Shown piece by piece: positions 3,401-64,000 of a stretch of DNA of 64,000 nt; the stretch's first letter is position 1, and every line of letters begins with the position of its first letter. The notes under the pieces are model-generated. The model did no database searches, was not told the DNA's origin, and was given only the letters and a program-made list of their open reading frames with translations. Location: contig OZ024753.1 in NCBI GenBank assembly GCA_964016885.1, positions 35,898,001-35,962,000 on the forward strand, in the 5' to 3' direction. The DNA comes from Eledone cirrhosa. Taxonomy: Eukaryota. The position numbers were made by a program, and so were the translations under genes.

Positions 3401-6400
3401 ATTCATTACACCTATTGTTAAGGTCAGTAAATGTTTTCTTTAACTCTTTAGCATTTAAATTGTCTGCATTCGGCCAGAATTCTCTCAACTCTTTCTGTTC
3501 AAACCCACCCTAATTGGCCACTCATACTGATGTTAAAGGTATGTTCTCAAAATAAATAACATCAAAATATCATAGCTTCGATATTATGTGAGATAAAGCC
3601 CTTACTGCCGAAATACAATAGTATATATAGAGTAATGTAAATGTTAACACTTTCTAACTAACTGATCCCATGCCATTGATTCATGCTTTTACAACACATT
3701 GACTCATCCCAAAGAGTTATTAATTATTTCATTACTAAAATGGTAATTTAACATGTCTTTGAAATTAAAGATGTATCTTCTGAACAATTTGAAATATCTT
3801 TGAAATTAAAAATGTACCTCCCGAACAATTTTTCAATTTAATATTATTGGATATTTTAAGAGACATAGTTTTATATAGAAATATCTTTGAAATACCCCCC
3901 CCCCCCCCCCCCCCCCCAAAAAAAAATACATGCCATCTATTAATAGAACTGTTATTTTATTCTTGCAGGTGTCAAAAAATAAGGTAGAAAAACCTTTCTA
4001 TTCCATACCAGAATTTGAAGAATGGCAACGTCAGACAGACAACTGGCATACATGGAAGGTCAAATACTACAAAGGTTTTTTTTTATTTTTTAACCTTCTT
4101 TAGGTCTTAGTAGCTGTTGATGGGCACCCCCCACCACCCCCACCCTCAATATCTTATTTATTAAATATTATATGATAGTCCTCGTCGGAGCAAGGTACAG
4201 CGTGGTCAACTCTGGTCAGACTTGTCTCCCAACGTGGGAGACCCGTCTAACCCATTCAAGCATGGAAAAATGGATGTTAAACGATGATGATGATGATGAT
4301 GGTGAATGACTTGCAATAATCTCCTTTTTTAATTTTTGTGTGTTTGTATGTGATGAATAGCAGTCGTTAGAACACCAGATAGAAATGTTTAGCAGTATGC
4401 CTTCTGGCTATATTCACTTTGAAATCAAATCTTGTCAAGGTGAACTTTTTCTTTTGACCTTTCAAAGTCAATAAATAAAGTATCGGTCAAGCCCTGGGGG
4501 TGACCCCCTCTGCCCGCTCCTTATCTGGAAGAAATTTGGATGTGTTCAGACCCAGAGAGGGATGGGCTCCATTGTTTAAAATGGTGATCCTAAGACTCTA
4601 TTAGGAGTTAAGGGCCTATGGGTGAATGGTTGGTCTGTAAATATGTGATAAACTAATTCTGTTGTATGCGGTAGTAAAGTTTGTATAAGTGACTCACCTT
4701 TTTACTGACACCTACTCAACCATGATGTCTGTTTTCCATGCTTACATGGGTTAGATGAGATCCTTTTCTGGCAGCTTGACAGGTTTCCTACAGCTGGATT
4801 TCTTTCCTGATACCAAGCCATACCTTATTCTAAGTATGGTACATGCTGGAAGACATATTGTTTGTTGGAGTCATAAACAACTGCTACTGTAGGTTTTATA
4901 TGGATTGTGGTGTCGAAATGCGGTTTGTAGTGTCGTATCACATGCTATGACGTATTTGTTAGTAGATTCTGCTGTGTAAAGTGTTTGTCCCTCAATTGTA
5001 CCTTCAGTGTTTGTTGTATTGTTTTTATCTTATCTTATAAATTGTGGCCCAGTAATGCAAGTCATGTCTCCTCTATTTCTTATCTTTGTCTTTTCTAATT
5101 AAAGAAACTGTAGTTATATATATTTACATTGGAAATAACATGTTAATTTACCTGTTACGGTGTTGGCTTGTCACCCATAGCTAATTTATCTGCATTTTGC
5201 TATTAGTTAAGACTTAAGACTTTCATAACCATATATCTAAGGAAAGACACCACCTACGATTTGCAAAACATCAAAATAATCGAGAATTTGGAGAGAGAGT
5301 TAGTAATATAACTAACATTCTTGTTAGTGGTGTGTGTACTACAGTTAAGTAGAGTTCACTGGTCTATGTTGCAGTAATTATGGCTAGTTGACAAAGTGTT
5401 TAACCCTTTAGCATTTAAACTAACTGTATTCGGCCAGAATTCTATGACTTTCTTTCTGTTCAAACCAGCCGTAACTGGCTGCTTGTACTTATGTTAAGGT
5501 ATTGTTCTCAAAATAAATAATATCAAATCTCGTAGATTCAATATTAAGTGAGATAAAGTGTTTACTGTGAAAATACAATAGTATATACACAGTAATGTAA
5601 ATGCTAAAGGGTTAAATTGACTATCTCTTCTCCATTTAACTGTAAAATCTGTAACAGACTGCTATATATATATATTAGAGAGCATACTCTGCTGATGGAT
5701 AGTAAATAGAGAAGAAGCATAATAATTCGTTAAATTGAATTTTTAACAGTTCATAATGTGTTTTCTTTTCTTTTCTTATTTGGGGACTTCTCCATCTCCC
5801 AGGTTTGGGTACCAGCACAACAAAAGAAGCTAAAGAATACTTTTCCGATATGGATCGCCACAGAATACCTTTCAAATATGAAGGGCCAGAAGATGATGCC
5901 TCAATAAATCTGGTTAGTTAGCTATCTATTACTTCTTTGCATTTTTATTTCTTTATTTATCAAATTACTTGTTGTTGTGAACACCATCTTGTCATTCACT
6001 TTTTCTGACAAATAGAGAGGGGTGAGGTTACTGCATACCTATTCTTAGCCAGTATATATATATTAAAACTAACATTAAAGTTTAAGCAAAGAATTGCTGC
6101 TTTCACCCTTAACGGGGTCTTCTCGTTAAGGGTGAAAGCAGCAATTCTTTGTTTAAACTTTAATCTGTTATTTAATAAATATTTGCTCTATGGTTTTATG
6201 TATTTCTTTATATATATATTTATCCTTATCAAGCCCTCTTCGGATTTTAGTCTTCACATTTATTATTATTGCTATATATATATATATATATAAGAAGGAA
6301 AGAGAGAAGGGAAAAAGAAAAGGAAGGGACACACACAGTCAACGCTGTAATGTGGTTGTGTAGGTAACAGTAAAAAGCTCCCAGTCCACACTGTAAATAT

Positions 6401-8002
6401 GGTTGGTGTTAGGAAGGGCATCCAACCGTAGAAAACCTGCCAGATAGTCCTATACGAGCAATCTTACCTCAAATGGGACAATTCCCGACCAATCTTACTT
6501 CAAATGGGACAATTCCTGTTTAACCCATGCTAGCGTGGAAGATATACGTTAAACAATGATGACGATGATATATATATATCATCATCATCATTATTATCAT
6601 TTCATTTTACGTCCGCTTTTTCCCTGCTTGCAAGGGTGGGACGGAAACTGATTCTGGCTTGATTTCTACAGCTGGATGCCCTTCCTAACACCAACCTCAT
6701 TTACAGTGAGTGGTGGTGCTTTTTTGCCGTGGCACCTCCACGACCACTTTGCAGTGGAATGATATGGACCCCAGTCCCTATCATCTCATTTCTACAGCTG
6801 AGTAAACTGGAGCAATGTGAAAATAAGTGTCTTGCTCAAGGAAACAATACATCACCCGGTCTGAGAATTGAACTCACAACTTTCGATTGCAAGGCCAATG
6901 CTCTAACCACTAAGCCATGTGCCTCCACGTATATATATATATATGCACAGGAAACAAGTACCACCAATCTCTGGGAGGGCCCTGTAGAAACAGTAGACAG
7001 CTTCTGCTACCTAGGTGACCGAATTAGCAACGGAGGTGGGTGCTCAGAAAGTACAATAACTAGGGTAAGAACGGGATGGAAGAAGTTTAGGGGAACTACT
7101 ACCACTGCTAGCTGCAAAAGGCTTCTCCCTCAGAATGAAAGGCAGACTGTATGATGCGTGTATCCGAACAGCGATGTTGCATGGTAGTGAGACCTGGGCG
7201 CTGAAGGTGGAAGACTTACGTAGATTAGAGAGAAACGAAGCCTGCATGCTCCGATGGATGTGTAACAGTAATATACGTGAACGACAAAGCATAAATGAAT
7301 TGAGAGAGAGACTGAGCATAAGAGGAATCAAATGCTGCGTGCAGGAGAGGCGGTTACGCTGGTATGGACATGTGATGCGTATGAAGGATGACAGCTGCAT
7401 AAAAAGGTGCAGAGCACTAGAAGTTGATGGAAACGCGGAGTGGGGAGACCCAAGATGACTTGGGATGAGGTGATAAAAGCCGACCTTACCCAACTACACC
7501 TCTCAAAGTCCAATGACACACGACCCGTGACTTCTGGCGTCACGCAGTAATACAGGGTACCCGACCTCCCATGGGTACATGCTGAAGCATATAAACAATA
7601 TGCCCCCCCCCCCCCCCCCCCCCCCCCCCCGCAAGGTGGTCGTGGAGGTGCCACGGCAAAAAAGCACCCAGCCCACACTGTAAAGTGGACGTGTAGGCGC
7701 CACGAAAAAGCACCCAGCACTCACTGTAAATGAGGTTGGTGTTAGGAAGGGCATCCAGCTGTAGAAATCAAGCCAGATCAGTTCCTGTATGAGCAAGGCA
7801 TGGTCAGCCGACCAGACACTGCCCACAACAGGACAACCCGTCCTAACCCATGCTAGCGTGGAAGAACGGACGTAAAACGGTGATGATGATGATGATGATG
7901 ATGCACACGTACACACACATGCAGGGTGACACTTCAACAGCATTCTAATAAATATTGCCTGTACAGGTAATCAAAGTGTGTATACATTTTTAAGGAACAG
8001 TT

Positions 8003-8043
<41 letters not shown>

Positions 8044-9384
8044 TTAATATAGATGAGATTCTACAGGACTAGAACTGTTTCATTCATTTGAAATCATCAG
8101 ATTCCTGATGATTTCAAATGAATGAAACAGTTCTAGTCCTGTAGAATCTCATCTATATTAAAACTGTTATACTCTGCTATGTATTGAGTACCTTACTGTG
8201 GTTACCTCCGATTCAACCCGGAATAACGTATATATATATATATATATATGACAGGCTTGGTACATTTTGTATGTTTTTTTATGACATTTTTCTAAATTAT
8301 GACATTTTTGTAAATTATGACATATTTCTTTTTTATGTCATTTTTTTTTTAGGCCTTCAGTAAAAAGAAAGCTGATGAGAGAAAAGAATGGCTTAGCAAC
8401 TGGATGGAGGAGAAACGAAGAAGAACAGAGATGGGACTTCCTGAGGTGAATATTATTCAAAAATACTTTCCTTCCATCCCATTGCTCTTATATTTCCAAA
8501 AGGAATGGAGCTACAAAGGTTTAAGTAAAATGAATGGGAAAAGGTTCTGAGAGCTACTATCCCACTTGACAACAAAAGGGGTTTCTCTCTCTCTCAATGA
8601 AAGGCCAGTTGTATGATTACTGTGTGCAAAGTGTGATAGTACTGAGACGTGCAGGGAATACATGAAGGCTGCACAGAAGGGAAGTGATAATTGTCTTGAT
8701 GAATGTGATGTTTAATGTGCATGAATGAAATAAGAGGAATTAGATGTAGTGTGCATCCTGGTTGGCATAAAAAATATTATTGTAGCTTTATCGATTGTTG
8801 AAAGTAAAATTAAATTTCTACATCCTGAATACTGACATTAATCCAAATAATTTTTATTGTTTTCTATTTTATTTTGTCTGTAGCTGTTTTTGTATGCCAA
8901 AGGAGTGTCGGAAATAACCTACAATCAGTTCATCAACCGGGAGTTAATTCTGTTCAGTTTCACAGATAATAACCGTTCAATCCCTTCGCTTGTTGATGGC
9001 CTGAAACCTGGTCAACGTAAAGTAATATTTACCTGTTTTAAAGAAATGACAAGAAGGAAGTGAAAGTAGCCCAGCTGGCTGGTTCTGTCGCAGAACTTTC
9101 CAGCATACCATCATGGTGAGGTAAGAACTATGGAACCAGTACATTTTCTCTTGAAAACCTGTAAAGTTATGTGCTACCATACTAAATGGTGCCATTTTTT
9201 TTTTTTTTTCTTCACTACCCCTGAACCACTATTTTGTTCTGTAGCACACACTAATGCTCCTTTCAATCCAGCTGCTTTTCAATGTGTATCTGAATATATG
9301 ATTAGTAGCTACCTATATATATGTCTGTCACTCACTCACTCACTCACTCACTCACTCTCCTCTCTCTCTCTCTCTCTCTCTCAC

Positions 9385-9482
<98 letters not shown>

Positions 9483-11691
9483 ACACTCACATATATAAAA
9501 ACACAGATATCTTGATTACATCAGAACCAAATGCTAACATTTGAGTTTTTTTCTTCCATTTTCCAGGCTTCACTTATGAGCACAATTATCAACTTAGCCC
9601 AGAACTTTGTGGGCTCCAATAACATAAATTTACTTCTGCCTATTGGGCAGTTTGGAACCCGGTTACACGGAGGCAAGGATGCTGCTAGCCCCCGTTATAT
9701 TTTTACACTATTAAGGTACGATATATTAATTGCAATCATATAGGTTCTATTTCAGTTTGGCTTTCTCAAATCAGACATTACCGCCTTCATCATCATCATC
9801 GTCATTGTCATTGTCATTGATGGCGCTGGCATGATTTGGCAGTGTTCTATGTCTGAATGAACTTCTTGATAATCTTTGTTTTTGAAATGAGATAATCTTC
9901 TCACATCAAATGTAAAGCAAAAATACAAGAGCCCCTCCTGTGTGTGTGTATATGTTTATATCTACACATACACACACACATTCAGACATTGAATAACATT
10001 TTTTCAGATATGTTTTATTCATGTTGTCAGTCCTGAGACACTGACATATCTTATAGAAACTTAAATAACTCTTACATCTTCATATATACTGAAATTTATA
10101 AATGGCTTAACATGTTTCATATTTTATTTCTTATTCATTTAACCCTTTAACATTTCCATGACACTATATTTACTATTCTATTTTGTGGTAAAGGCTTTAC
10201 CTCACATAATACTGAATCTATGAGATTTTGATATTATTTATTTTGAGAACAATACCTTAACGGCTGGTTTGAACGAGGTGAGAGGATTCTGGCCTTTAAC
10301 GACCGGTTTAAATGCTAAAGGGTTAAAAGTCTAATCGTCACTCAACTGTTTTGTCCAGTAGTAAAGATACTTTAAACGTTTCAATTAATAACATTTTCAG
10401 ATATTTTCTGCCAAATCATTACAAGCAGCTTGATGTGCGAGGGTTGGTGTATGTGGTGCTTATTTAGTTTTTTTCTTTTGCATTTGCAGTCCTGTGACGA
10501 AAAGGATCTTTCATCCTCATGATATGCCAATCTTGAACAACCTCTATGACGACAACCAGAAAATAGAACCTGAATACTATATTCCCATTATTCCAATGGT
10601 ATTGGTAAATGGAACTGATGGCATTGGTACAGGATGGAGTACAAAAATTCCAAATTACAACCCGAGAGAGATTATATCAAATATCAAACGAATGTTGTCT
10701 GGAAACGATCCTGTCGAGATGGTGATTATTTTTAACTTCTTTTTTTACTTCACATGATATACCAGTCATATGATGAGGTGATATTCTAGTGAGTGTGTTT
10801 GTTTGTGTGTGTATCAAGATCAACATCATTTAACATTTGTTTTCTCTGCTAGTAAGAGTTGAACAAGTAGTCACAAAGCAAGTCAGTACTTAACGTTACT
10901 GACCTCTCAGACAGGCCAAGTGCAGCAGCTTGCTTATGTATGTTCCAGCATTTTATGGCACTAGGGACATTGTCATGTCTTTGACACAACTGAAGTGTCC
11001 TCCTGGACTTTTTGTTTAGAAGGATTTCTACTGTTGTTGTTGTTTTTACCCAGTTCCAATTTTTAGGGATGTCTTTACATATGGATGCCCCTTTTCACAC
11101 ACACACACACACACACACTAGTGTTTCCTGTCATATGACTGCTAATTTTGGGAGCATAATTTTGCTGTTATCAGTGTGACCACCTATATATATATAGCAA
11201 ACAGTTCTAATCCTGTAGAAGCCATTTCTATATTAAAAAACAAAAAAAAACAAAAAAACTCCATGCTGTAAAGTGGTTGTGTAGGTAACACGGTAAAAAG
11301 CACCCAGCACTCACTGTAAATGTGGTTGGTGTTAGGAAGGGCATCCAGCCGTAGAAAACCTGGCAGGCAGTGCTATACGATCGAGACACGGTCATTCGAC
11401 CAATCTTGCCTCAATTGGGACAATTCCCGTCTATTCCATGCTAGCATGGAAGATAGACGTTAAACGATGATGATGTTATTGGATAACTGAATTCTATTAC
11501 CAGAATATCCCCTAATCCCAAGGATGCCCTTAGGATGTGAAATTTAAATGAACATTGTACTAAACTAAGCTTAATATTAGATATATACTCTTTATAGGTA
11601 AGTTTTCTATAAATACTCCCCACACATGCCAAAATTAAATATATGAGTGATACATGGTCATCAGATGTTTGTAAAACAAATAGTACGTGTG

Positions 11692-14900: not shown

Positions 14901-17900
14901 CTGTAAGGATGAACGGCCAAGGTTAACTTTGCCTTTCATCCTTACAGCGGTCAATAAAATAAAGCATCAGTAATTCACTGGGGTCGATTTAATCGACTTT
15001 CTCCTTCCCCTTCAAATTGATGGCATTGTGCCTAAAGTAGAAACAATTATAGTTATTTTCCTATTCTTTGATAATTCATAAGGTTTTATATAAAATTGAA
15101 TGTTTTAGGATAAAGATGACACTGAAGATGATGAGAAAGAAGAATCAACATCAGGACCAGATTTTAACTACATCCTTAATCTACCACTGTGGTGCTTAAC
15201 CAAGGAAAAGAAAGAAGATTATATACGTCAACGAGACGCCAAGGTAGGTTTTTAGTGATTTTCAACAACTTAATCATCAATAGAAATGGGACTTTTTTAT
15301 CAGTGGAAATGGGACTTGTTTCATCAATGGAAATGGGACTTGTCTCATTAGTGGAAATGGGACTTGTCTCATTAGTGGAAATGGGATTTGTCTTATCAAT
15401 GGAAATGAGATTTGTCTCATCAATGGAAATGAGATTTGTCTCATCAATGGAAATGGGATTTGTCTCATCGGTGGAAATGGGACTTGTTTCATTAGTGGAA
15501 ATGGGATTTGTCTCATTAGTGGAAATGGGATTTGTCTCATTAGTGGAAATGGGACTTGTCTCATTAGTGGAAATGGGATTTGTCTCATTAGTGGAAATGG
15601 GACTTGTCTCATTAGTGGAAATGGGACTTGTCTCATTAGTGGAAATGGGATTTGTCTCATTAGTGGAAATGGGATTTGTCTCATTAGTGGAAATGGGACT
15701 TGTCTCATTAGTGGAAATGGGACTTGTCTCATTAGTGGAAATGGGACTTGTCTCATTAGTGGAAATGGGATTTGTCTCATTAGTGGAAATGGGACTTGTC
15801 TCATTAGTGGAAATGGGACTTGTCTCATTAGTGGAAATGGGACTTGTCTCATTAGTGGAAATGGGATTTGTCTCATTAGTGGAAATGGGACTTGTCTCAT
15901 TAGTGGAAATGGGACTTGTCTCATTAGTGGAAATGGGACTTGTCTCATTAGTGGAAATGGGACTTGTCTCATTAGTGGAAATGGGACTTGTCTCATTAGT
16001 GGAAATGGGACTTGTCTCATTAGTGGAAATGGGACTTGTCTCATTAGTGGAAATGGGACTTGTCTCATTAGTGGAAATGGGACTTGTCTCATTAGTGGAA
16101 ATGGGATTTGTCTTATCAATGGAAATGAAATGTGTCTTATCAATGGAAATGGGATTTGTCTCATCAATGGAAATGGGATTTGTCTCATCGGTGGAAATGG
16201 GACTTGTCTCATTAGTGGAAATGGGATTTGTCTTATCAATGGAAATGAAATGTGTCTTATCAATGGAAATGAGATTTGTCTCATCGGTGGAAATGGGACT
16301 TGTCTCATCAATGGAAATGGGACTTGTCTCATTAGTGGAAATGGGATTTGTCTTATCAATGGAAATGGGATTTGTCTCATCAATGGAAATGGGATTTGTC
16401 TCATCAATGGAAATGGGATTTGTCTCATCAATGGAAATGAGATTTGTCTCATCAATGGAAATGAGATTTGTCTCATCAATGGAAATGGGATTTGTCTCAT
16501 CAATGGAAATGGGATTTGTCTCATCAATGGAAATGGGATTTGTCTCATCGGTGGAAATGGGACTTTAGCCCGTTTCTTCATTTCATTACCAATTTCGTTC
16601 TTTCTCTTGTGTAAGAAGCTGTTAATTACTATTAGTCTATATAAACAGTCTTTTTCTTTATGGTGTTATTGCCTCTCCCCTCCCCATAAATTGCGGGCCT
16701 TGTCCCTTAATTAGAAACTATTATTAATTACATTGTGTGTTTTCTTTTAAGGCTGATGAACTTGAACTTTTGCGGCGGAAGAGACCGGAAGACCTATACA
16801 GAGACGATTTGGATGCCCTTCTAATAGAGCTAGACGTAAGTTTTATTTGTTATTTGTTGATTTAACTCTTAACGTCCCATACCAGATGAAACCGCATCAA
16901 TAAAACATTCTTGTACAGTAGTAAAGTATAAAACAACAGCACTGTGACTTCGTTACATTAAAAATTAAAGTGTTTTCTTTAATATTGCAAATATTTACAA
17001 TGATGTGTCCACTTGTCAAAATACTCGAAACATTTAAATGAACAAACATGTTTTTAGATATTTTCTGGTAAATCATTACAGGATGTGTCGAGTTAACAAG
17101 TTTGGTCTGTTTTCTAAAGGGAAATGAGGAGAATAAATGGGAAAAAGATAGTCTGCCTCAAATCGATCCAATAGAAAGACCAGCAGTGCAAGTTAGAGGT
17201 AGTATAATAAGTAATGCAGTCAAAGATATGAAGACAGGTAAGGCAGCTGGGCCTTTGGAGATAGTTGCTGAGATGTTGAAGGCATCTGGAATGGTGGGAC
17301 ATACTATGGTCACCCGTATAGTTAACCAAGTAATACAGAATGGGATCATAGCAAAAGACTGGCGTAGCAGCATCATCATTAACTGCTACAAGGGTAAAGG
17401 GGATGCTCTAGATAGGGGAAACTATAGCGGCATTAAGTTAGTTGACCAGGTCATGAAGGTCACAGAAAGAGTTATAGCGCAACTAATCAGAGTGAATTGA
17501 TCTAGATGAAATGCAGTTTGGGTTTGTGTCAGGTAAAAGTACCACAGACGCTCTTTTCCTTGTACGACAACTACAGGAGAAGTACCTAGCTAAAAGTAAA
17601 CCCCTCTACTTAGCTTTTGTAGACCTGGAGAAAGCTTTTGACAGAGTCCCCCGCTCCATTAACTGGTGGGCTCTTAGAAAACTAGGTGTAGATGAATGGC
17701 TTGTGAGAGCTATACAAGCTATGTATAAAGAAACAGTCAGTAAGGTTAGAATTAACAATGAATATTGTGAAGAATTTAGTGTAAAAGTTGGTGTTCATCA
17801 AGGCTCTGTCCTTAGACCCCCTCCTATTTATTATTGCCCTTCAGGCTATAGCAGAGGAGTTCAAGACCGGCTGCCTATGGGAACTCCTATATGCAGATGA

Positions 17901-20900
17901 TCTAACGCTCATAGCTGAACTAGAGAAGAAATTCCAAACATGGGACATGGAAGCATGGCCTAGAATCAAAAGGCCTTAAAGTTAACTTGTCTAAGACTAA
18001 AGTTCTAGTTTGTAGAAAGGTAAATAGGGCACAGGTGCCCTCAGGGAAATGGCCATGCTCAGTGTGTAGGAAAGGAGTAGGCAGAAATTCCATTTTATGT
18101 CACAAATGCAAAGTATGGGTACATAAAAGATGTAGTGGGATCACAGGTAAACTATCTAAGAACGTAGACTTTATATGTGGCCGATGCTCAGGTGCAATAA
18201 GTAGCAAGTGTCCACAGGAGACTAGCTCCTTCTATTGCCCAGATGGTTCTATAGAAATAGTGGACACTTTCCGTTACCTGGGTGACGAAATCAGCAGTGG
18301 TGGAGGGTGTTCTGAAAGTACAGTAGCCAGAGTCAGAACGGGATGGAAAAAGTTCAGAGAGCTTATACCACTGTTGGCCACAAAAGGTTTCTCTCTAAAA
18401 ATGAAAGGCAGATTGTATGATGCCTGTATACGAACAGCAATGCTACATGGCAGTGAGACATGGGCATTACGTGTAGAGGACCTGCGCAGACTGGAAAGGA
18501 ACGAAGCATGCATGCTCCGTTGGATGTGTAATAGTAATATATGTGAACGGCAAAGCATAAATGAACTAAGTGAGAAATTAGGAATAAGAGGGATCAGATG
18601 CTGTTTACTTGAGAGAAGACTACGTTGGTATGGCCATGTGATGCGCATGAAAGACGACAGCTGTATAAAAAAGTGCAGGGCAATCAAAATTGATGGTAGT
18701 TACGGAGTAGGTTGACCCAGAAAAACCTGGGACGATCTGATAAATTCCAACCTTACACACTTGCACCTCTCTAAGACAATGTCACTGGACCGAGATCTTT
18801 GGCGCTACGCAGTTATACAGAAGACCCGCCTTGCCTATGTACAAAGCGAAACCTACAGTCAGTAGGCACCTCTTAACCAAATATACACCCCATCCACTAC
18901 CCCCCCCCTCTCTCCCTCTCTCTGTAAAGTTGGTACCACAACATCCAGTGCTAATAAATGAGATCGAGATCATGTAGGTGTCACAACAAAAAAAACACAG
19001 TCCACGCTGTAATGTGGCCGTGTAGGTAACACGGTAAAATGTTCTTAATTCCACACTGTAAATGTGGTTGGTGTTAGGAAGGACATCCAGCCATAGAAAA
19101 CTTGCCAGATAGTCCTATATGAGCGAGACACGGTCACCCAACCAACCTTGCCTCAAGTGGGACAACTCCCGTCTAACATGGAAGATGGACGTTAAACAAA
19201 GATGATGATGGTCGGCTTATATTCGAGTGTATACAGTAATTTTATGTTATTCTCCAAACACCAGACTAATAAGGATAAAGTTAGTTATATTACTAAATCC
19301 TTCTTAATTCTTGATTATTTTCGAAATGGTTTGAAAATCATAGGCAGTGAGTTATATTAAAAATGTGGAAGGGAAAGGGTTAATAAAAATATTTGGACAA
19401 GGGTTGAGGAACTTTTGGTAATCTTAACTTTTTTGTTATTATCTTGATTTCTTTTTATGCAGCAATTTGAAGAACAAGAGCGGCTAGATGAGAAAGTTGA
19501 TATCGTGAAAACCCAGAAGTCTTCTAAGGGCCGTGTAAAACAAAAGAAGATAACCCTTGAAGAAACAATGCCCTCTCCTATTGGTCGACGTATTCAGCCG
19601 GTAATTGATCATGCTACCAAAATAAAGGCTGAAAAAGAAGTAGCTTCTAAGAAGCGGCAACAAGTAAGTGTAACACTTTACCTGCTACTCTGATTTATGT
19701 TATAGGGCTCTATCCAGCTGTCTATCCACCTGTCTTTCTATGTCTATCCATTGTCCATCTAGCTGTCTCTCCAACTGTCTTTCCATCTGCCTGTCCATTG
19801 TCTATCTGGCTACCCACCCAACCATCAATCCATTCACCTATCTATTCACATATAACTATCCATTCATCCATCCACCTGCCTGCCCACCTGTTCATTCCAC
19901 CTATCTATCTAATTACCTGCCTGTCCATTCCATCCGTACATCTACCTGTATATTCAACCACCTCTCTGTCTTCTTTCCATTTACCTGTCTTACAATAGAT
20001 CTGTCCACCTAACAATATTTAAATATCGCTACAAACCTACAAGCAACAAAATATTCAGTTTGAAACTAACTTGATATTTTATTATCTTGTCAATATTTAG
20101 AATCACCAACTGGGCTCTGCCAAGTTAAAAACAAAATGCCCTAGAAATGCTGTATGTCACTACAGCACCCCTATGACTGCCATCAGGAGTTATGGTATTC
20201 CTGGAAAGGATAATGTTATTTTTTCTTTTATTTTGTTTTACAGATTAAGAAAGGAATGAAGGAAGAAAATGTTGGTGATGAAAATTCACAAGAACCTAAA
20301 AGTTTAATTCAGCGCCTTGGAGAGCCAAAAGCCAGTGAGTTTTATGTTTATTAAACCCTCTATTTCAGGTCTCTTCCTCGATTTTTAAAATCTCTTATAT
20401 CAAAGAAAGTTGAAAACCTCTATGTATGAGCAGGGCATGGTAATCCAACTTGTCTCACCTCAAGAATGTGACAACCCATCCAACTCATGCCAGCATGGAA
20501 AACAAACCTAAAACTGGTGATGATGATGATGATGATGATGGTCATCATCATTCTAAAATGTGCAGTTTTGTATTGTAGAACCAGGGGTAGTTTAGGCTGC
20601 ATTTGTAGAATCATTAATATACAAAGCTTCTTACGTAGATTTCTGCTGGGAGGGTTTTAGATAAATATGAACCCTTTAAAATAGGCAGTTTTATATCTCA
20701 GATACAGGACTGGTTTCAGGTGAGTTATCAAAAGGGATAAATATCTTTTATTATGTGGTGTGGGTTTTTTTTTCTTCTTTTTGTAATACTGTGTCGTGTC
20801 ATGCCATGCCATGGTCCATAACTTCTAGTGGAGTCATAAGGGTGATATATCTCGGTCATTTTAGACTTGATGAAGCCTCTTCTTGGAGGAGTAGAGAGAG

Positions 20901-44404: not shown

Positions 44405-44585
44405 CAATCAATATTAACAAGATGAGGAATAAAAAATAAAACTCTAGATGAAACCTGTGATATAGATTGTGATTCTATAGTCGCAGTTTAAGAGTGTGGG
44501 GTGGGGTTGTGGTAGGTTTATGTGTACACACACGTCCTCATCCTCATCATCTAGCATCGTCATCATCATCATCCGTTTTTCCTGC

Positions 44586-45567
44586 TATGTGGACCACTTT
44601 ATGTGGACCACCTTATGATGAGCCATGTCCTATGTGGACCACTTTATGTGGACCACCTTATGATGAGCCATGTCCTATGTGGACCACTTTATGTGGACCA
44701 CCTTATGATGAGCCATGTCCTATGTGGACCACTTTATGTGGACCACCTTATGATGAGCCATGTCCTATGTGGACCACTTTATGTGGACCACCTTATGATG
44801 AGCCATGTCCTATGTGGACCACTTTATGTGGACCACCTTATGATGAGCCATGTCCTATGTGGACCACTTTATGTGGACCACCTTATGATGAGCCATGTCC
44901 TATGTGGACCACTTTATGTGGACCACCTTATGATGAGCCATGTCCTATGTGGACCACTTTATGTGGACCACCTTATGATGAGCCATGTCCTATGTGGACC
45001 ACTTTATGTGGACCACCTTATGATGAGCCATGTCCTATGTGGACCACTTTATGTGGACCACCTTATGATGAGCCATGTCCTATGTGGACCACTTTATGTG
45101 GACCACCTTATGATGAGCCATATCCTATGTGGACCACTTTATGTGGACCACTTTATGTGGACCACCTTATGATGAGCCATGTCCTATGTGGACCACTTTA
45201 TGTGGACCACCTTATGATGAGCCATGTCCTATGTGGACCACCTTATGATGAGCCATGTCCTATGTGGACCACCTTATGATGAACCATGTCCTATGTGGAC
45301 CACCTTATGATGAGCCATGTCCTATGTGGACCACCTTATGATGAGCCATGTCCTATGTGGACCACCTTATGATGAGCCATGTCCTATGTGGACCACCTTA
45401 TGATGAGCCATGTCCTATGTGGACCACCTTATGATGAATCATGTCCTATGTGGACCACCTTATGATGAGCCATGTCCTATGTGGACCACCTTATGATGAG
45501 CCATGTCCTATGTGGACCACCTTATGATGAGCCATGTCCTATGTGGACCACCTTGGGATGAGCCATG
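44586..45567. repeat. Minisatellite: 45-bp units switching to 31-bp units
   Basis: tatgtggaccactt+tatgtggaccaccttatgatgagccatgtcc, then only the 31-mer. Confidence 0.97.
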
Positions 45568-45730: not shown

Positions 45731-48700
45731 TCATCATCATCATCATCATCATCAGGTTTAACGTCCATGTTCCACGCTTGCATGGGTTTGGACGGGGTAG
45801 TCCCACTTGAGGCAAGAGTGATTGTCTTGCTCGCATAGGACTGTCTGGCGGGTTTTCTACGGCTGGATGCCCTTCCTAACACCAACCACATTTACAGTGT
45901 GGGGCTGGGAGGTTTTTACCGTGTTGCCTACACGGCCACATTACAGCGTGGACTGTCTGGCGGGTTTTCTACAGCTGGATGCCCTTCCTAACACCAACCA
46001 CATTTACAGTGTGGGGCTGGGAGGTTTTTACCGTGTTGCCTACACGGCCACATTACAGCGTGGACTGTCTGGCGGGTTTTCTACAGCTGGATGCCCTTCC
46101 TAACACCAACCACATTTACAGTGTGGGGCTGGGAGGTTTTTACCGTGTTGCCTACACGGCCACATTACAGCGTGGACTGTCTGGCGGGTTTTCTACAGCT
46201 GGATGCCCTTCCTAACACCAACCACATTTACAGTGTGGGGCTGGGAGGTTTTTACCGTGTTGCCTACACGGCCACATTACAGCGTGGACTGTCTGGCGGG
46301 TTTTCTACAGCTGGATGCCCTTCCTAACACCAACCACATTTACAGTGTGGGGCTGGGAGGTTTTTACCGTGTTGCCTACACGGCCACATTACAGCGTGGA
46401 CTGTCTGGCGGGTTTTCTACGGCTGGATGCCCTTCCTAACACCAACCACATTTACAGTGTGGGGCTGGGAGGTTTTTACCGTGTTGCCTACACGGCCACA
46501 TTACAGCGTGGACTGTCTGGCGGGTTTTCTACGGCTGGATGCCCTTCCTAACACCAACCACATTTACAGTGTGGGGCTGGGAGGTTTTTACCGTGTTGCC
46601 TACACGGCCACATTACAGCGTGGACTGTCTGGCGGGTTTTCTACGGCTGGATGCCCTTCCTAACACCAACCACATTTACAGTGTGGGGCTGGGAGGTTTT
46701 TACCGTGTTGCCTACACGGCCACATTACAGCGTGGACTGTCTGGCGGGTTTTCTACAGCTGGATGCCCTTCCTAACACCAACCACATTTACAGTGTGGGG
46801 CTGGGAGGTTTTTACCGTGTTGCCTACACGGCCACATTACAGCGTGGACTGTCTGGCGGGTTTTCTACGGCTGGATGCCCTTCCTAACACCAACCACATT
46901 TACAGTGTGGGGCTGGGAGGTTTTTACCGTGTTGCCTACACGGCCACATTACAGCGTGGACTGTCTGGCGGGTTTTCTACGGCTGGATGCCCTTCCTAAC
47001 ACCAACCACATTTACAGTGTGGGGCTGGGAGGTTTTTACCGTGTTGCCTACACGGCCACATTACAGCGTGGACTGTCTGGCGGGTTTTCTACGGCTGGAT
47101 GCCCTTCCTAACACCAACCACATTTACAGTGTGGGGCTGGGAGGTTTTTACCGTGTTGCCTACACGGCCACATTACAGCGTGGACTGTCTGGCGGGTTTT
47201 CTACGGCTGGATGCCCTTCCTAACACCAACCACATTTACAGTGTGGGGCTGGGAGGTTTTTACCGTGTTGCCTACACGGCCACATTACAGCGTGGACTGT
47301 CTGGCGGGTTTTCTACAGCTGGATGCCCTTCCTAACACCAACCACATTTACAGTGTGGGGCTGGGAGGTTTTTACCGTGTTGCCTACACGGCCACATTAC
47401 AGCGTGGACTGTCTGGCGGGTTTTCTACAGCTGGATGCCCTTCCTAACACCAACCACATTTACAGTGTGGGGCTGGGAGGTTTTTACCGTGTTGCCTACA
47501 CGGCCACATTACAGCGTGGACTGTCTGGCGGGTTTTCTACAGCTGGATGCCCTTCCTAACACCAACCACATTTACAGTGTGGGGCTGGGAGGTTTTTACC
47601 GTGTTGCCTACACGGCCACATTACAGCGTGGACTGTCTGGCGGGTTTTCTACAGCTGGATGCCCTTCCTAACACCAACCACATTTACAGTGTGGGGCTGG
47701 GAGGTTTTTACCGTGTTGCCTACACGGCCACATTACAGCGTGGACTGTCTGGCGGGTTTTCTACAGCTGGATGCCCTTCCTAACACCAACCACATTTACA
47801 GTGTGGGGCTGGGAGGTTTTTACCGTGTTGCCTACACGGCCACATTACAGCGTGGACTGTCTGGCGGGTTTTCTACAGCTGGATGCCCTTCCTAACACCA
47901 ACCACATTTACAGTGTGGGGCTGGGAGGTTTTTACCGTGTTGCCTACACGGCCACATTACAGCGTGGACTGTCTGGCGGGTTTTCTACGGCTGGATGCCC
48001 TTCCTAACACCAACCACATTTACAGTGTGGGGCTGGGAGGTTTTTACCGTGTTGCCTACACGGCCACATTACAGCGTGGACTGTCTGGCGGGTTTTCTAC
48101 AGCTGGATGCCCTTCCTAACACCAACCACATTTACAGTGTGGGGCTGGGAGGTTTTTACCGTGTTGCCTACACGGCCACATTACAGCGTGGACTGTCTGG
48201 CGGGTTTTCTACGGCTGGATGCCCTTCCTAACACCAACCACATTTACAGTGTGGGGCTGGGAGGTTTTTACCGTGTTGCCTACACGGCCACATTACAGCG
48301 TGGACTGTCTGGCGGGTTTTCTACAGCTGGATGCCCTTCCTAACATCAACCACATTTACAGTGTGGGGCTGGGAGGTTTTTACCGTGTTGCCTACACGGC
48401 CACATTACAGCGTGGACTGTCTGGCGGGTTTTCTACAGCTGGATGCCCTTCCTAACATCAACCACATTTACAGTGTGGGGCTGGGAGGTTTTTACCGTGT
48501 TGCCTACACGGCCACATTACAGCGTGGACTGTCTGGCGGGTTTTCTACAGCTGGATGCCCTTCCTAACATCAACCACATTTACAGTGTGGGGCTGGGAGG
48601 TTTTTACCGTGTTGCCTACACGGCCACATTACAGCGTGGACTGTCTGGCGGGTTTTCTACAGCTGGATGCCCTTCCTAACACCAACCACATTTACAGTGT

Positions 48701-50572
48701 GGGGCTGGGAGGTTTTTACCGTGTTGCCTACACGGCCACATTACAGTGTGGACTGTCTGGCGGGTTTTCTACAGCTGGACGCCCTTCCTAACACCAACCA
48801 CATTTACAGTGTGGGGCTGGGAGGTTTTTACCGTGTTGCCTACACGGCCACATTACAGCGTGGACTGTCTGGCGGGTTTTCTACAGCTGGATGCCCTTCC
48901 TAACATCAACCACATTTACAGTGTGGGGCTGGGAGGTTTTTACCGTGTTGCCTACACGGCCACATTACAGCGTGGACTGTCTGGCGGGTTTTCTACAGCT
49001 GGATGCCCTTCCTAACACCAACCACATTTACAGTGTGGGGCTGGGAGGTTTTTACCGTGTTGCCTACACGGCCACATTACAGTGTGGACTGTCTGGCGGG
49101 TTTTCTACAGCTGGACGCCCTTCCTAACACCAACCACATTTACAGTGTGGGGCTGGGAGGTTTTTACCGTGTTGCCTACACGGCCACATTACAGCGTGGA
49201 CTGTCTGGCGGGTTTTCTACAGCTGGATGCCCTTCCTAACATCAACCACATTTACAGTGTGGGGCTGGGAGGTTTTTACCGTGTTGCCTACACGGCCACA
49301 TTACAGCGTGGACTGTCTGGCGGGTTTTCTACAGCTGGATGCCCTTCCTAACATCAACCACATTTACAGTGTGGGGCTGGGAGGTTTTTACCGTGTTGCC
49401 TACACGGCCACATTACAGCGTGGACTGTCTGGCGGGTTTTCTACAGCTGGATGCCCTTCCTAACATCAACCACATTTACAGTGTGGGGCTGGGAGGTTTT
49501 TACCGTGTTGCCTACACGGCCACATTACAGCGTGGACTGTCTGGCGGGTTTTCTACAGCTGGATGCCCTTCCTAACATCAACCACATTTACAGTGTGGGG
49601 CTGGGAGGTTTTTACCGTGTTGCCTACACGGCCACATTACAGCGTGGACTGTCTGGCGGGTTTTCTACAGCTGGATGCCCTTCCTAACATCAACCACATT
49701 TACAGTGTAGGGCTGGGAGGTTTTTACCGTGTTGCCTACACGGCCACATTACAGCGTGGACTGTCTGGCGGGTTTTCTACAGCTGGATGCCCTTCCTAAC
49801 ACCAACCACATTTACAGTGTGGGGCTGGGAGGTTTTTACCGTGTTGCCTACACGGCCACATTACAGCGTGGACTGTCTGGCGGGTTTTCTACAGCTGGAT
49901 GCCCTTCCTAACATCAACCACATTTACAGTGTAGGGCTGGGAGGTTTTTACCGTGTTGCCTACACGGCCACATTACAGCGTGGACTGTCTGGCGGGTTTT
50001 CTACAGCTGGATGCCCTTCCTAACACCAACCACATTTACAGTGTGGGGCTGGGAGGTTTTTACCGTGTTGCCTACACGGCCACATTACAGCGTGGACTGT
50101 CTGGCGGGTTTTCTACAGCTGGATGCCCTTCCTAACACCAACCACATTTACAGTGTGGGGCTGGGAGGTTTTTACCGTGTTGCCTACACGGCCACATTAC
50201 AGCGTGGACTGTCTGGTGGGTTTTCTACAGCTGGATGCCCTTCCTAACACCAACCACATTTACAGTGTGGGGCTGGGAGGTTTTTACCGTGTTGCCTACA
50301 CGGCCACATTACAGCGTGGACTGTCTGGCGGGTTTTCTACAGCTGGATGCCCTTCCTAACACCAACCACATTTACAGTGTGGGGCTGGGAGGTTTTTACC
50401 GTGTTGCCTACACGGCCACATTACAGCGTGGACTGTCTGGCGGGTTTTCTACAGCTGGATGCCCTTCCTAACACCAACCACATTTACAGTGTGGGGCTGG
50501 GAGGTTTTTACCGTGTTGCCTACACGGCCACATTACAGTGTGGACTGTCTGGCGGGTTTTCTACAGCTGGAT
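45731..50572 (-). repeat. 112-bp tandem array (~42 copies) derived from an RTE 3' UTR, headed by a (CAT)n RTE end
   Basis: The reverse complement of the unit matches ~18995-19110; 112-bp ORF periodicity in the track. Confidence 0.95.
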
Positions 50573-50574
50573 CT

Positions 50575-50615
<41 letters not shown>

Positions 50616-51019
50616 CTTCATCATTTAAATTTTAGTAGATATTATTTTTCAATTAAGTTGTAAGAGGAATTACTCCTTCGTTCGTCATGAGCTTTTGCCC
50701 TTTATGTATATATCATCATCATCATGATCATCATCATCATCATCATCATTTTACGTCCATTTTCCACACTAACATAAACAATATATATAATTATTAAGGC
50801 CATATATATCTATATGTCAGTTCGATTCCCGGACTAGATGATGCATTATGTCCTTGAGGAAGACACTTTATTTCACGTTGCTCCTTCTATCTGGAGTTGC
50901 GACCGATAGATAGTACTAGCAACTGGAAAGGCCGACGAAAACATTGTTTCCTCGGTCCGATTTGACAAAAGTCGATCAACAAATTTTTTTTTAATATATA
51001 TATGGATATATATATATAT

Positions 51020-55892: not shown

Positions 55893-56800
55893 TTATAATA
55901 ATGAAATTATTGTGTACAGTGCTCAGGTGCACTACAACTCATCAAAGGTGCATGTATAGTACATAGAATAATGTACAAATGTCAGGAAAATGAACAGTGT
56001 ATGAGTCATGATATAATAATAATAATAATAATGAAATATTGTGTACAGTGCCCAGGTACACCACAACTCATCAAAACGTGCATGTACAGTACATAGGGCA
56101 ATGCACAAACATCAGGAAAATGAACAGTGCACGAGTCATGATACACACATGTGTGCATGTGTATGGAAGGGGTACATCAGGTGTAGTTTTGGCGTATTTC
56201 GGGAGGCATGAGTGTCTTAAAGGATGCAGTGTCTCGGCAGCTAACAACTGACGCAGGCAGTTTGTTCCATGCTTCAGCAACTCTGAGCGTGAAAAAATGT
56301 CTACGAAAGTCATGGGAGCTGTGCTGTTTTCTGATTTTGTAGGCATGTCCACGTGTGTTAGACACATGGAGATCAAAAAGGTGCTCAGGGTTGCAATTGG
56401 CGAGATGGTTAATAACTTTGTGGGTATTTACCAAGTCCATTGCCAGACGTCGGAGCTTCAATGAATCCATGCCCAGGGAAGCAAGGCGTTCACAGTATGG
56501 TAGGTGTCTGATGGAGGGTATGCGCTTGGTTGCACGTCTCTGAACAGTTTCCAGGAGGTCAATGTTCTGAGCAAGATAGGGGTTCCAGACTGATGATGCG
56601 AATTCCAAGTGTGGTCGTACCATAGCTGTATACAGTTTTAAATAGATGGCTGGAGAGCGGCTAACAAAGGTCTTGTTGAGTGATGCCAAGACACCCTCGG
56701 CCTTCTTGACAATCTCAGAGACATGCTTGTCCAACGCAAATCGCTGCTGACAGTAATGCCCAGGTCACGTTCACAAGAGGACTTCTTGATATCAGTGTTC
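55893..56800 (-). mobile_element. CR1-clade LINE 3' fragment with duplicated 3' UTR, nested in the foldback element
   Basis: ORF 56177-56734 LYTAMVRPHLEFASSVWNP..VQRRATK..ERLASLG..RRL; (ATT)n tails. Confidence 0.9.
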
Positions 56801-61562: not shown

Positions 61563-64000
61563 TGTCCTGGGTAAGACATTAAACTACATCCAGTGGCAAG
61601 GCTCCAGTTCGGGAGTTCAGCTGTGGGGAATGTGGAGTTACCCCTTAGTTGTCATAACTCCCAGGTCTGTTCTGGCCTGGAGTAGTAGTACCTGTTAGGG
61701 CCCCATTTATGGGATAAATAACTACCTTATTCGAGTGACGCCGGTAAGGTATTGTCAGCCATTGAAAAGAAATATGGAGAGTCTATCTAACAGCACTAGA
61801 GTTAGAGCCCCTAATTACACTGTCAAGGAGCAGTCTGGTCGTTATGACTCTGCTGGCTTAGAGCCACAGGGAGGGCCAGTGGATGATGGATCAGCTGTCT
61901 CTGAGACAAATATAAAGAATACAGTTTTGTCCTGCAGAAGAGCCATCAAAATGGGCACTTTGAATGTGAGGACTATTCGGACTCCATAGAGAGAGGAGTT
62001 GGGTCATCTGTTCGAGGAGAGTGGTATACAGATACTTGCGATCCAAGAACACAGGATCCTACACGATGAGCCCGTGAGAAGTGTGATGATTGGGAAGATG
62101 AGCCAGCTCATCACCACATCGGCAGTGAGGAACATGACCAATGCTGCAGTGGGAGGAGTGGGTTTTGTTTTCAGCACAAAAACCAGTCTATTGGTGAGGG
62201 AAATAATGCCTGTCTCTCCGCGAGTGTTGAGGGTGACCTTCAATGGAAACCCAAGACTGACAGTCATCTCAGCCTATAGTCCAACTGAGGGAGACAGTGA
62301 TGTGAGTGCAGAAGAGTTCCATGAGGAGGTGTGTAGAGCTGTCAACACCACACAACATCCTGCTTGTTTTGGGGGACTTCAATGCACATCTGAGTAGGGA
62401 AGGCAGTGAAGATCCTTGCTGGTACTTCCATAACAACACCAACACTGAGGACACCCTGCTGGAGACAAACTTGATAGCGACCAACCTAAGGTTTAGGAAG
62501 AATCCGGGGAAGGTGTGGACCTATCTCAGATATGCACCTGTCCAAGTTCCAGATTGATTTCATTCTGATGAGGAAAAAGTGGCGGAATAGTGTTCTGAAC
62601 ACAGAACCATACAACTATTTCAGTACACTGGGTAGTGACCACCGGCTTGTTATGAGTGAGGTCTGGGTGAGCTTAAGAAAGAGCAAGGCTCAGCCTTGGA
62701 GAGCAATCTATGACTGGGGAGCTTTCAAGGAAGATGATAAGCTACAGGAGTGGTTCACAGTGGAAGCGAGGAACAGGTTCAGTGCTCTGTGTGGAGAGAC
62801 AGAGGTGAGAGAGAGATTGGATGGACTGTGGAGAGTGTGACGAGGAGGTACGGGCACTTCACCAATGCAGTGGCGGAAGCAAGTGAGACCCGGGTGCCGA
62901 GGAGAAAGAACAAAAGGAAGCACGTCAGCTCTGCAGACCCAAAAGTGTGTGCAGCCAGAGAACACCTGAAAGCTGCCAAGGACCAATTCTATGCTGATCC
63001 TACGGAGGAGAGGATGAAGACTGTGGAGGTGATGAGGGAAGAACTCTGTACCGCTTACACTGAGGCCAGAGAGGAGGCACTGATAGAGAAGATCAGAAGT
63101 GTGGAGAGAGCGGTTGACAGATCTGGATGTAAGGAGAGCTGGATGATCATCAACGAGATCACAGGGAGGAAGAGAAGGTGTTCGAGTCAGATCCAGGGAA
63201 CAGGGCCCAAGGATAGGAAGAGAAATGGCTAGACCATTTTAGGACCCTACTAGGAGAGCCACCCTCCACAGCCCAGAGCAATGGGGACATCAGGCGGCTG
63301 TTTGAGGAACTGAATATTGAGACAGAACCCTTCACCAGAGAGGAGCTTCAGAGAGCCAATAAGAAGATCAAGGAGGGAAAGGCTCATGGAGAAGATGGAG
63401 TGGCATAAGAGGTGTGATTTTGATGATATCATCCTGGGGTTCTGTAACCAGGCACTGGATAAAGGAGTTGCCCCGAATCAGTGGAGGATCAGTAACATCG
63501 TCCCAGCGCCAAAGAAGGGAGAGATCTCTAACAGCAACAACTACAGGGGGATCTCACTGAGATCACTTCGGGCAAAGACCCTCAACAGAATGATTCTTAA
63601 CAGGATCCAGCCTGAGATGGAGAAGAAGCTCAGGGACAACCAGAACAGCTTCAGAGAGGGAAGATCAACCACCAGTCACATCCTGATGCTGAGGAGTATA
63701 TTAGAGGGAGCTAGAGCAAAGTGCATTCCTGCAGTCATGGTTTTCATTGACTTTAGGAAGGCCTTTGATTCTGTGGACCGTCACTGCCTGATGAAGATCT
63801 TACAGGCTTATGGAATCCCCAAGAAGATAGTGGACCTGATATCACTGCTCTACACCAACACCAAAGCCCAAGTCATTATACCTGATGGGATGACAGAGTT
63901 CTTTGAGATACTGGCTGGAGTGCTCCAGGGAGATACATTGGCTCCCTACCTTTTTATCCTCGTAGTGGACTATTATATGCACCTTGCACTGGAGAAACAC
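61563..64000 (+). mobile_element. RTE/RTEX-type LINE with 5' region: APE endonuclease plus RT, multiple frameshifts and stops, runs off the window
   Basis: GTLNVRT, ILAIQEHR, GGVGF, AYSPT, GDFNAH, QIDFIL, SDHRLV, PKKG..NYRGISL, FIDFRKAFDSV, GVLQGDTLAP. Confidence 0.93.

Follow-up and report, generated by a model that had tools for sequence, protein, structure and literature searches.

Long-read assemblies have been described as suffering mostly from indels in short homopolymers, by which the frame is shifted and false stops arise (PMC12007338, in the portion of that article consulted here). Genuine compensating frameshift pairs (pCFM) exist as well, and a study from 2022 found them in less conserved genes (PMC8935012, likewise in the portion consulted). 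According to the same portion, this study discarded any sequence with an in-frame stop, and its high-confidence pairs were seen in more than one species. Our literature search combining topoisomerase II, ribosomal frameshifting and octopus returned no report, although the search was a narrow one and does not imply absence from print.

The locus described here bears similarities to both of these systems. We analysed a window of 64,000 nucleotides from the octopod Eledone cirrhosa (contig OZ024753.1, positions 35,898,001 to 35,962,000), in which one exon of a TOP2 gene is interrupted by a pair of opposite single-base indels. Like the pairs in the consulted portion of PMC8935012, it combines the loss of 1 nt with the gain of 1 nt on one lineage, and the frame is restored after a short stretch. 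Unlike those pairs, it encloses two stops, falls within a highly conserved segment and does not occur in same-species contigs. The gene-fragmenting long-read indel errors, as far as they are characterized in the consulted portion of PMC12007338, share more with our locus: single-base indels at short homopolymers, false premature stops and the lack of accompanying substitutions. As with those errors, the indels in the window are corrected by independent sequence data from the same species. What sets the window apart from them is that its two errors are opposite in sign, fall within one exon at a distance of 60 nt and so mimic a compensated pair. Both indels are very likely assembly consensus errors in an ordinary octopod TOP2 exon, and they represent neither a real feature nor a new mechanism.

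By its sequence we identified the gene as an octopod TOP2, encoding a type IIA DNA topoisomerase, at about 318 to 31547 of the window (+ strand, as for all features of this gene given below). It was delimited by tblastn with the proteins P0002, P0003 and P0122, by an exon model and by Pfam TOP2 domains, the latter being found on P0002 and on two exons of the window. Exon 1967-2260 had its best match in the protein search with Octopus bimaculoides TOP2 (P0002, XP_014790219.1; 98% over 98 residues). The exon model comprises 24 coding exons within the window with a total of 3798 nt and AG/GT at all junctions. Boundaries of the C-terminal exons were picked by hand from tblastn matches and GT/AG sites, so that a small extra exon is possible there, and the 5' part of the gene, equivalent to roughly residues 1-328 of P0002, falls outside the window. 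With both changes described below applied, the corrected model stays open in one frame for 1265 codons. Its identity is 89.4% with P0002 (945 aligned residues) and, across the aligned model, 83.7% with TOP2 of Argonauta hians (P0122, GAB1599786.1). TOPRIM_C is followed by DNA_topoisoIV, and the gene is orthologous to named TOP2 proteins, which is what is expected of a eukaryotic type IIA topoisomerase. Domain order was the same in the O. bimaculoides and A. hians proteins, and only ordinary divergence separated the window from these two, as befits another octopod.

The affected exon (8884-9120; 237 nt, 79 codons, AG..GT, phase 0/0 in the exon model) spans the end of TOPRIM_C (PF16898) and the start of DNA_topoisoIV (PF00521, winged-helix part). 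The frame break that the earlier note had reported in this exon was present in the assembled letters. TGA 9061-9063 and TAG 9067-9069, which arise only when the assembly is read in the shifted frame, correspond to model residues 421 and 423 and are the only internal stops of the 24-exon model; both vanish once the two changes seen in the contigs are applied. A conserved segment of 20 residues reads intact in the frame starting at 9042, and the entry frame is back at AYHHGE. These 20 shifted residues are letter-identical to those of O. bimaculoides and A. hians TOP2. A pattern spanning the segment was matched by 112 of 137 fetched proteins, 94 of them equal in length to the in-frame exon and 18 longer by one residue; the 25 outside the pattern were fragments or motif variants. 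In none of the printed homologue segments did the shifted stretch occur, and P0002, P0122 and P0123 carry the normal segment.

TOP2 is an essential gene. The next exon (9567-9715, PF00521 positions 51-96), downstream of the apparent stops, carries a PRY motif whose tyrosine we take to be the catalytic tyrosine of type IIA topoisomerases. This tyrosine is model residue 484 and the first stop is residue 421, so that TOP2 as assembled would be a null. No stop and no frameshift was found in the other 23 coding exons of the model (3561 nt). The earlier note had likewise described all other exons as clean, which holds, but had counted 24 of them, a number that in our model includes the affected exon. 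As in a compensatory pair, the two indels sum to zero and restore the frame within an exon of 237 nt; unlike in such a pair, in-frame stops (TGA 9061 and TAG 9067) lie between them.

We then compared the region with public sequencing data. A listing of runs for 8345-9190 by shared words (84 words) returned 23 runs. Three runs from one sample of organism A, which is the same species, had a word share of 0.75-0.76, compared with 0.29 for a second sample from that study. Four of the 23 runs were compared with 8345-9190 at the level of contigs, at 80% likeness: X1 and X3 from one sample, X4 from another sample of the same study, and X18 from organism C. The other 19, left aside, were X2 (from the sample of X1), the remaining runs of organisms B and C, all of small share, and three runs of RAD-seq raw reads from organism A, which we considered unlikely to reach this locus. 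No listed run was recorded as RNA, which has no bearing on expression, and the assignment of X1 and X3 to DNA and of X4 to RNA comes from the behaviour of their contigs at the intron.

All six contigs covering both sites restored the frame (two each from X1 and X3, one each from X4 and X18), with all depth there accounted for. Five of these were from organism A, four genomic-like and one spliced. None of the six carried the broken form of the window. In the first error, a short A run at 9039-9042 lacks one A. An A was added behind 9039 in both contigs of X1 (depth 12.8 of 12.8), both of X3 (9.7 of 9.7) and the single one of X4 (98.5 of 98.5); X18 adds a G behind 9041, which likewise restores the frame. 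The second error is one extra C at 9100-9101, the letter at 9100 being omitted in X1 record 1, X3 record 13, X4 record 19 and X18 record 9. The second contig of X1 and that of X3, which belong to a diverged copy, drop the letter at 9104 instead, and together the two omissions account for the whole depth (5.18 + 7.67 of 12.8 in X1; 2.7 + 7 of 9.7 in X3). Neither the organism A contigs nor the organism C contig gave any support, independent or from a second species, for the indel pair. The earlier note had favoured two consensus errors in short homopolymers and had named reads with an added A and without the extra base as the sign of an assembly error. Both corrections appeared in the contigs, which bears out this explanation.

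X4 record 19 (3009 nt, depth 98.5) skips an intron of 438 bases (8446-8883) with GT..AG ends, and its loose ends correspond to window positions 5882-5911 and, for the end behind 9121, 9568-9597, both in neighbouring exons. On these grounds we read it as a contig from a spliced transcript of this species. Its GT..AG joint confirms the acceptor of exon 8884-9120. Against the two exons of the window it showed 0 substitutions and exactly 2 gaps. Over 846 bases the genomic contig matches the intron and flanks of the window with 0 substitutions, as does the transcript for both exons, which places them at the same locus.

The two coding sites were part of a wider patch. X1 record 1 covers the whole 846 bases; 8 gap letters and no substitution separate it from the window, and the two have the same length. 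X3 gave a matching total in two pieces (3 + 5). Six of the 8 gap letters are non-coding and lie outside the exon pair, so that small indels without substitutions extend into the non-coding flanks, as is expected of assembly errors. Four gap letters were located (8536, 8695, 9039 and 9100); the remaining four are not in the two exons, judging by X4. At 8536 in the upstream intron an extra G in a G run is omitted in the main contig of both X1 and X3. An extra C at 8695 in the same intron, which is not within a C run, is omitted in X1 (5.18 of 5.18) and X3 (2.7 of 2.7). In simulations, 8 single-base gaps gave a word share of 0.74 (0.71-0.79), compared to the 0.75-0.76 observed. Under assumed SNP:indel ratios, the chance of finding 8 indels without a SNP was 0.004 at 1:1 and 6e-7 at 5:1. 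Judged from these letters, indels without substitutions are the profile of error and not of polymorphism. Since the other 23 exons are without frame error, the patch is local and the error rate uneven.

An ordinary TOP2 exon was thus very likely miscalled twice, one A short at 9039-9042 and one C in surplus at 9100-9101, and the cancellation in length is due to chance. About one small indel per 100 bases with 0 substitutions would fit an under-polished or thinly covered long-read consensus, the technology being our assumption. The patch is flanked by a C28 run (7603), by (TA)n at 8006-8040 and by (CT)n at 9331-9480, and our guess would be that these repeats caused thin coverage or failed polishing. 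The actual TOP2 gene would be spliced normally and translated without any recoding. The best DNA run may even be the source of the window, in which case the error reading would be strengthened; the sample of X1 and X3 may or may not be the animal behind the window.

The earlier note had also listed a null haplotype, a paralogue and double recoding as alternatives. None of these found support, as the spliced contig is in frame and the broken form is in no contig. A real null haplotype survives best, although we consider it very improbable. Here the assembled animal would be heterozygous for a TOP2 allele that carries both indels, is stopped before the catalytic tyrosine and was lost from the contigs. 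Contig assembly does collapse minor alleles, and our comparison, being one of contigs with genomic depths that are shallow (word depth 2.6-7.7), shows the presence of an intact allele and not the absence of a broken one. Such a haplotype would, however, have to differ from the other allele by 8 gap letters without a single substitution in 846 bases, which is unlike natural polymorphism, and the transcript contig from the second sample is intact. Moreover, two independent indels of opposite sign at a distance of 60 nt would be of no benefit to such an allele, as they enclose two stops.

The probability of a decayed TOP2 paralogue in the window, with the intact gene located elsewhere, is slighter still. 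A diverged partial copy of this region does exist in the DNA runs, as described below. The other 23 exons of the window are open, however, and the 6 substitutions of the copy are absent from the window, while the extra base at 9039 is present in the copy.

The weakest alternative is that real indels are decoded by a -1 and then a +1 ribosomal shift, by insertion/deletion editing or by stop read-through, as the window sequence alone and an exon length that is a multiple of three might suggest; with transcript and genomic contigs already in frame by the same two differences, we give it practically no weight. Because X4 record 19 is already in frame, ribosomal frameshifting is not needed, and because X1 record 1 and X3 record 13, which are genomic-like, share the two differences of the transcript, RNA editing does not account for them. 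A canonical heptamer for -1 ribosomal frameshifting, X XXY YYZ, requires phase 2. The only XXXYYYZ heptamer of exon 8884-9120 is at 9037 in phase 0 and thus out of register, in agreement with the earlier note, which had denied an in-frame canonical heptamer at the first site. Neither a heptamer in the incoming frame nor a frame break in the mRNA itself, as represented by X4 record 19, was therefore found for a programmed -1 frameshift, and RNA differing from genomic DNA at the two sites, the mark of insertion/deletion editing, was not seen against X1 record 1 and X3 record 13. If both stops were read through, about 20 unrelated residues would remain in a segment with hardly any variation among the printed homologues. 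A-to-I editing is known in cephalopods; read-through of the stops by this route was rejected as well, since the shifted residues would stay wrong. We also considered splicing out of the shifted stretch. GT/AG pairs exist in the exon, but conserved residues would be lost, and the transcript contig has no such joint.

With both indels read as consensus errors, the assembly has a local patch of about 1% small indels within an essential gene. Annotation would call the TOP2 gene of the window broken or would mis-model exon 8884-9120. Other frameshifts in the same assembly need to be checked against reads before they are interpreted biologically.

The diverged partial copy mentioned above covers 9025-9121 and was found in the DNA runs as X1 record 8 (267 nt) and X3 record 18 (472 nt), with 6 substitutions. 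Three of the four substitutions listed for it are non-synonymous (K to Q, A to T and S to F). In the organism C contig all 9 listed differences in exon 8884-9120 were silent. No second copy of the exon was found inside the window by blastn, nor among the X4 transcript contigs compared. The match of the copy stops at 9121, the end of the exon, which is the same place where the matches of spliced contigs stop, and the copy may therefore be a retrocopy or pseudogene fragment. As this copy, too, carries the added base at 9039, it leaves the first error unexplained; its reads may have been a source of the extra C.

Several repetitive elements were encountered in the window. Decayed reverse-transcriptase LINE copies, presumably RTE-like by their motifs, lie in TOP2 introns at 7044-7493, 8537-8637 and 17072-18715. 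The LINE piece in intron 8446-8883 is 75% like 18345-18427 and attracted many repeat contigs in the contig comparison. A minisatellite with units of about 20 bases fills 1.3 kb of a TOP2 intron (15280-16570) and produces spurious open frames on both strands, 460-476 codons in length. A long tandem array of about 40 copies of a 112-base unit extends over approximately 45880-50630, with a shorter array upstream at 44473-45279, and was seen as repeated identical ORFs. By eye, a C-terminal piece at 56177-56764 (- strand) and an endonuclease-like piece at 61990-63232 (+ strand) look like further non-LTR retroelements.
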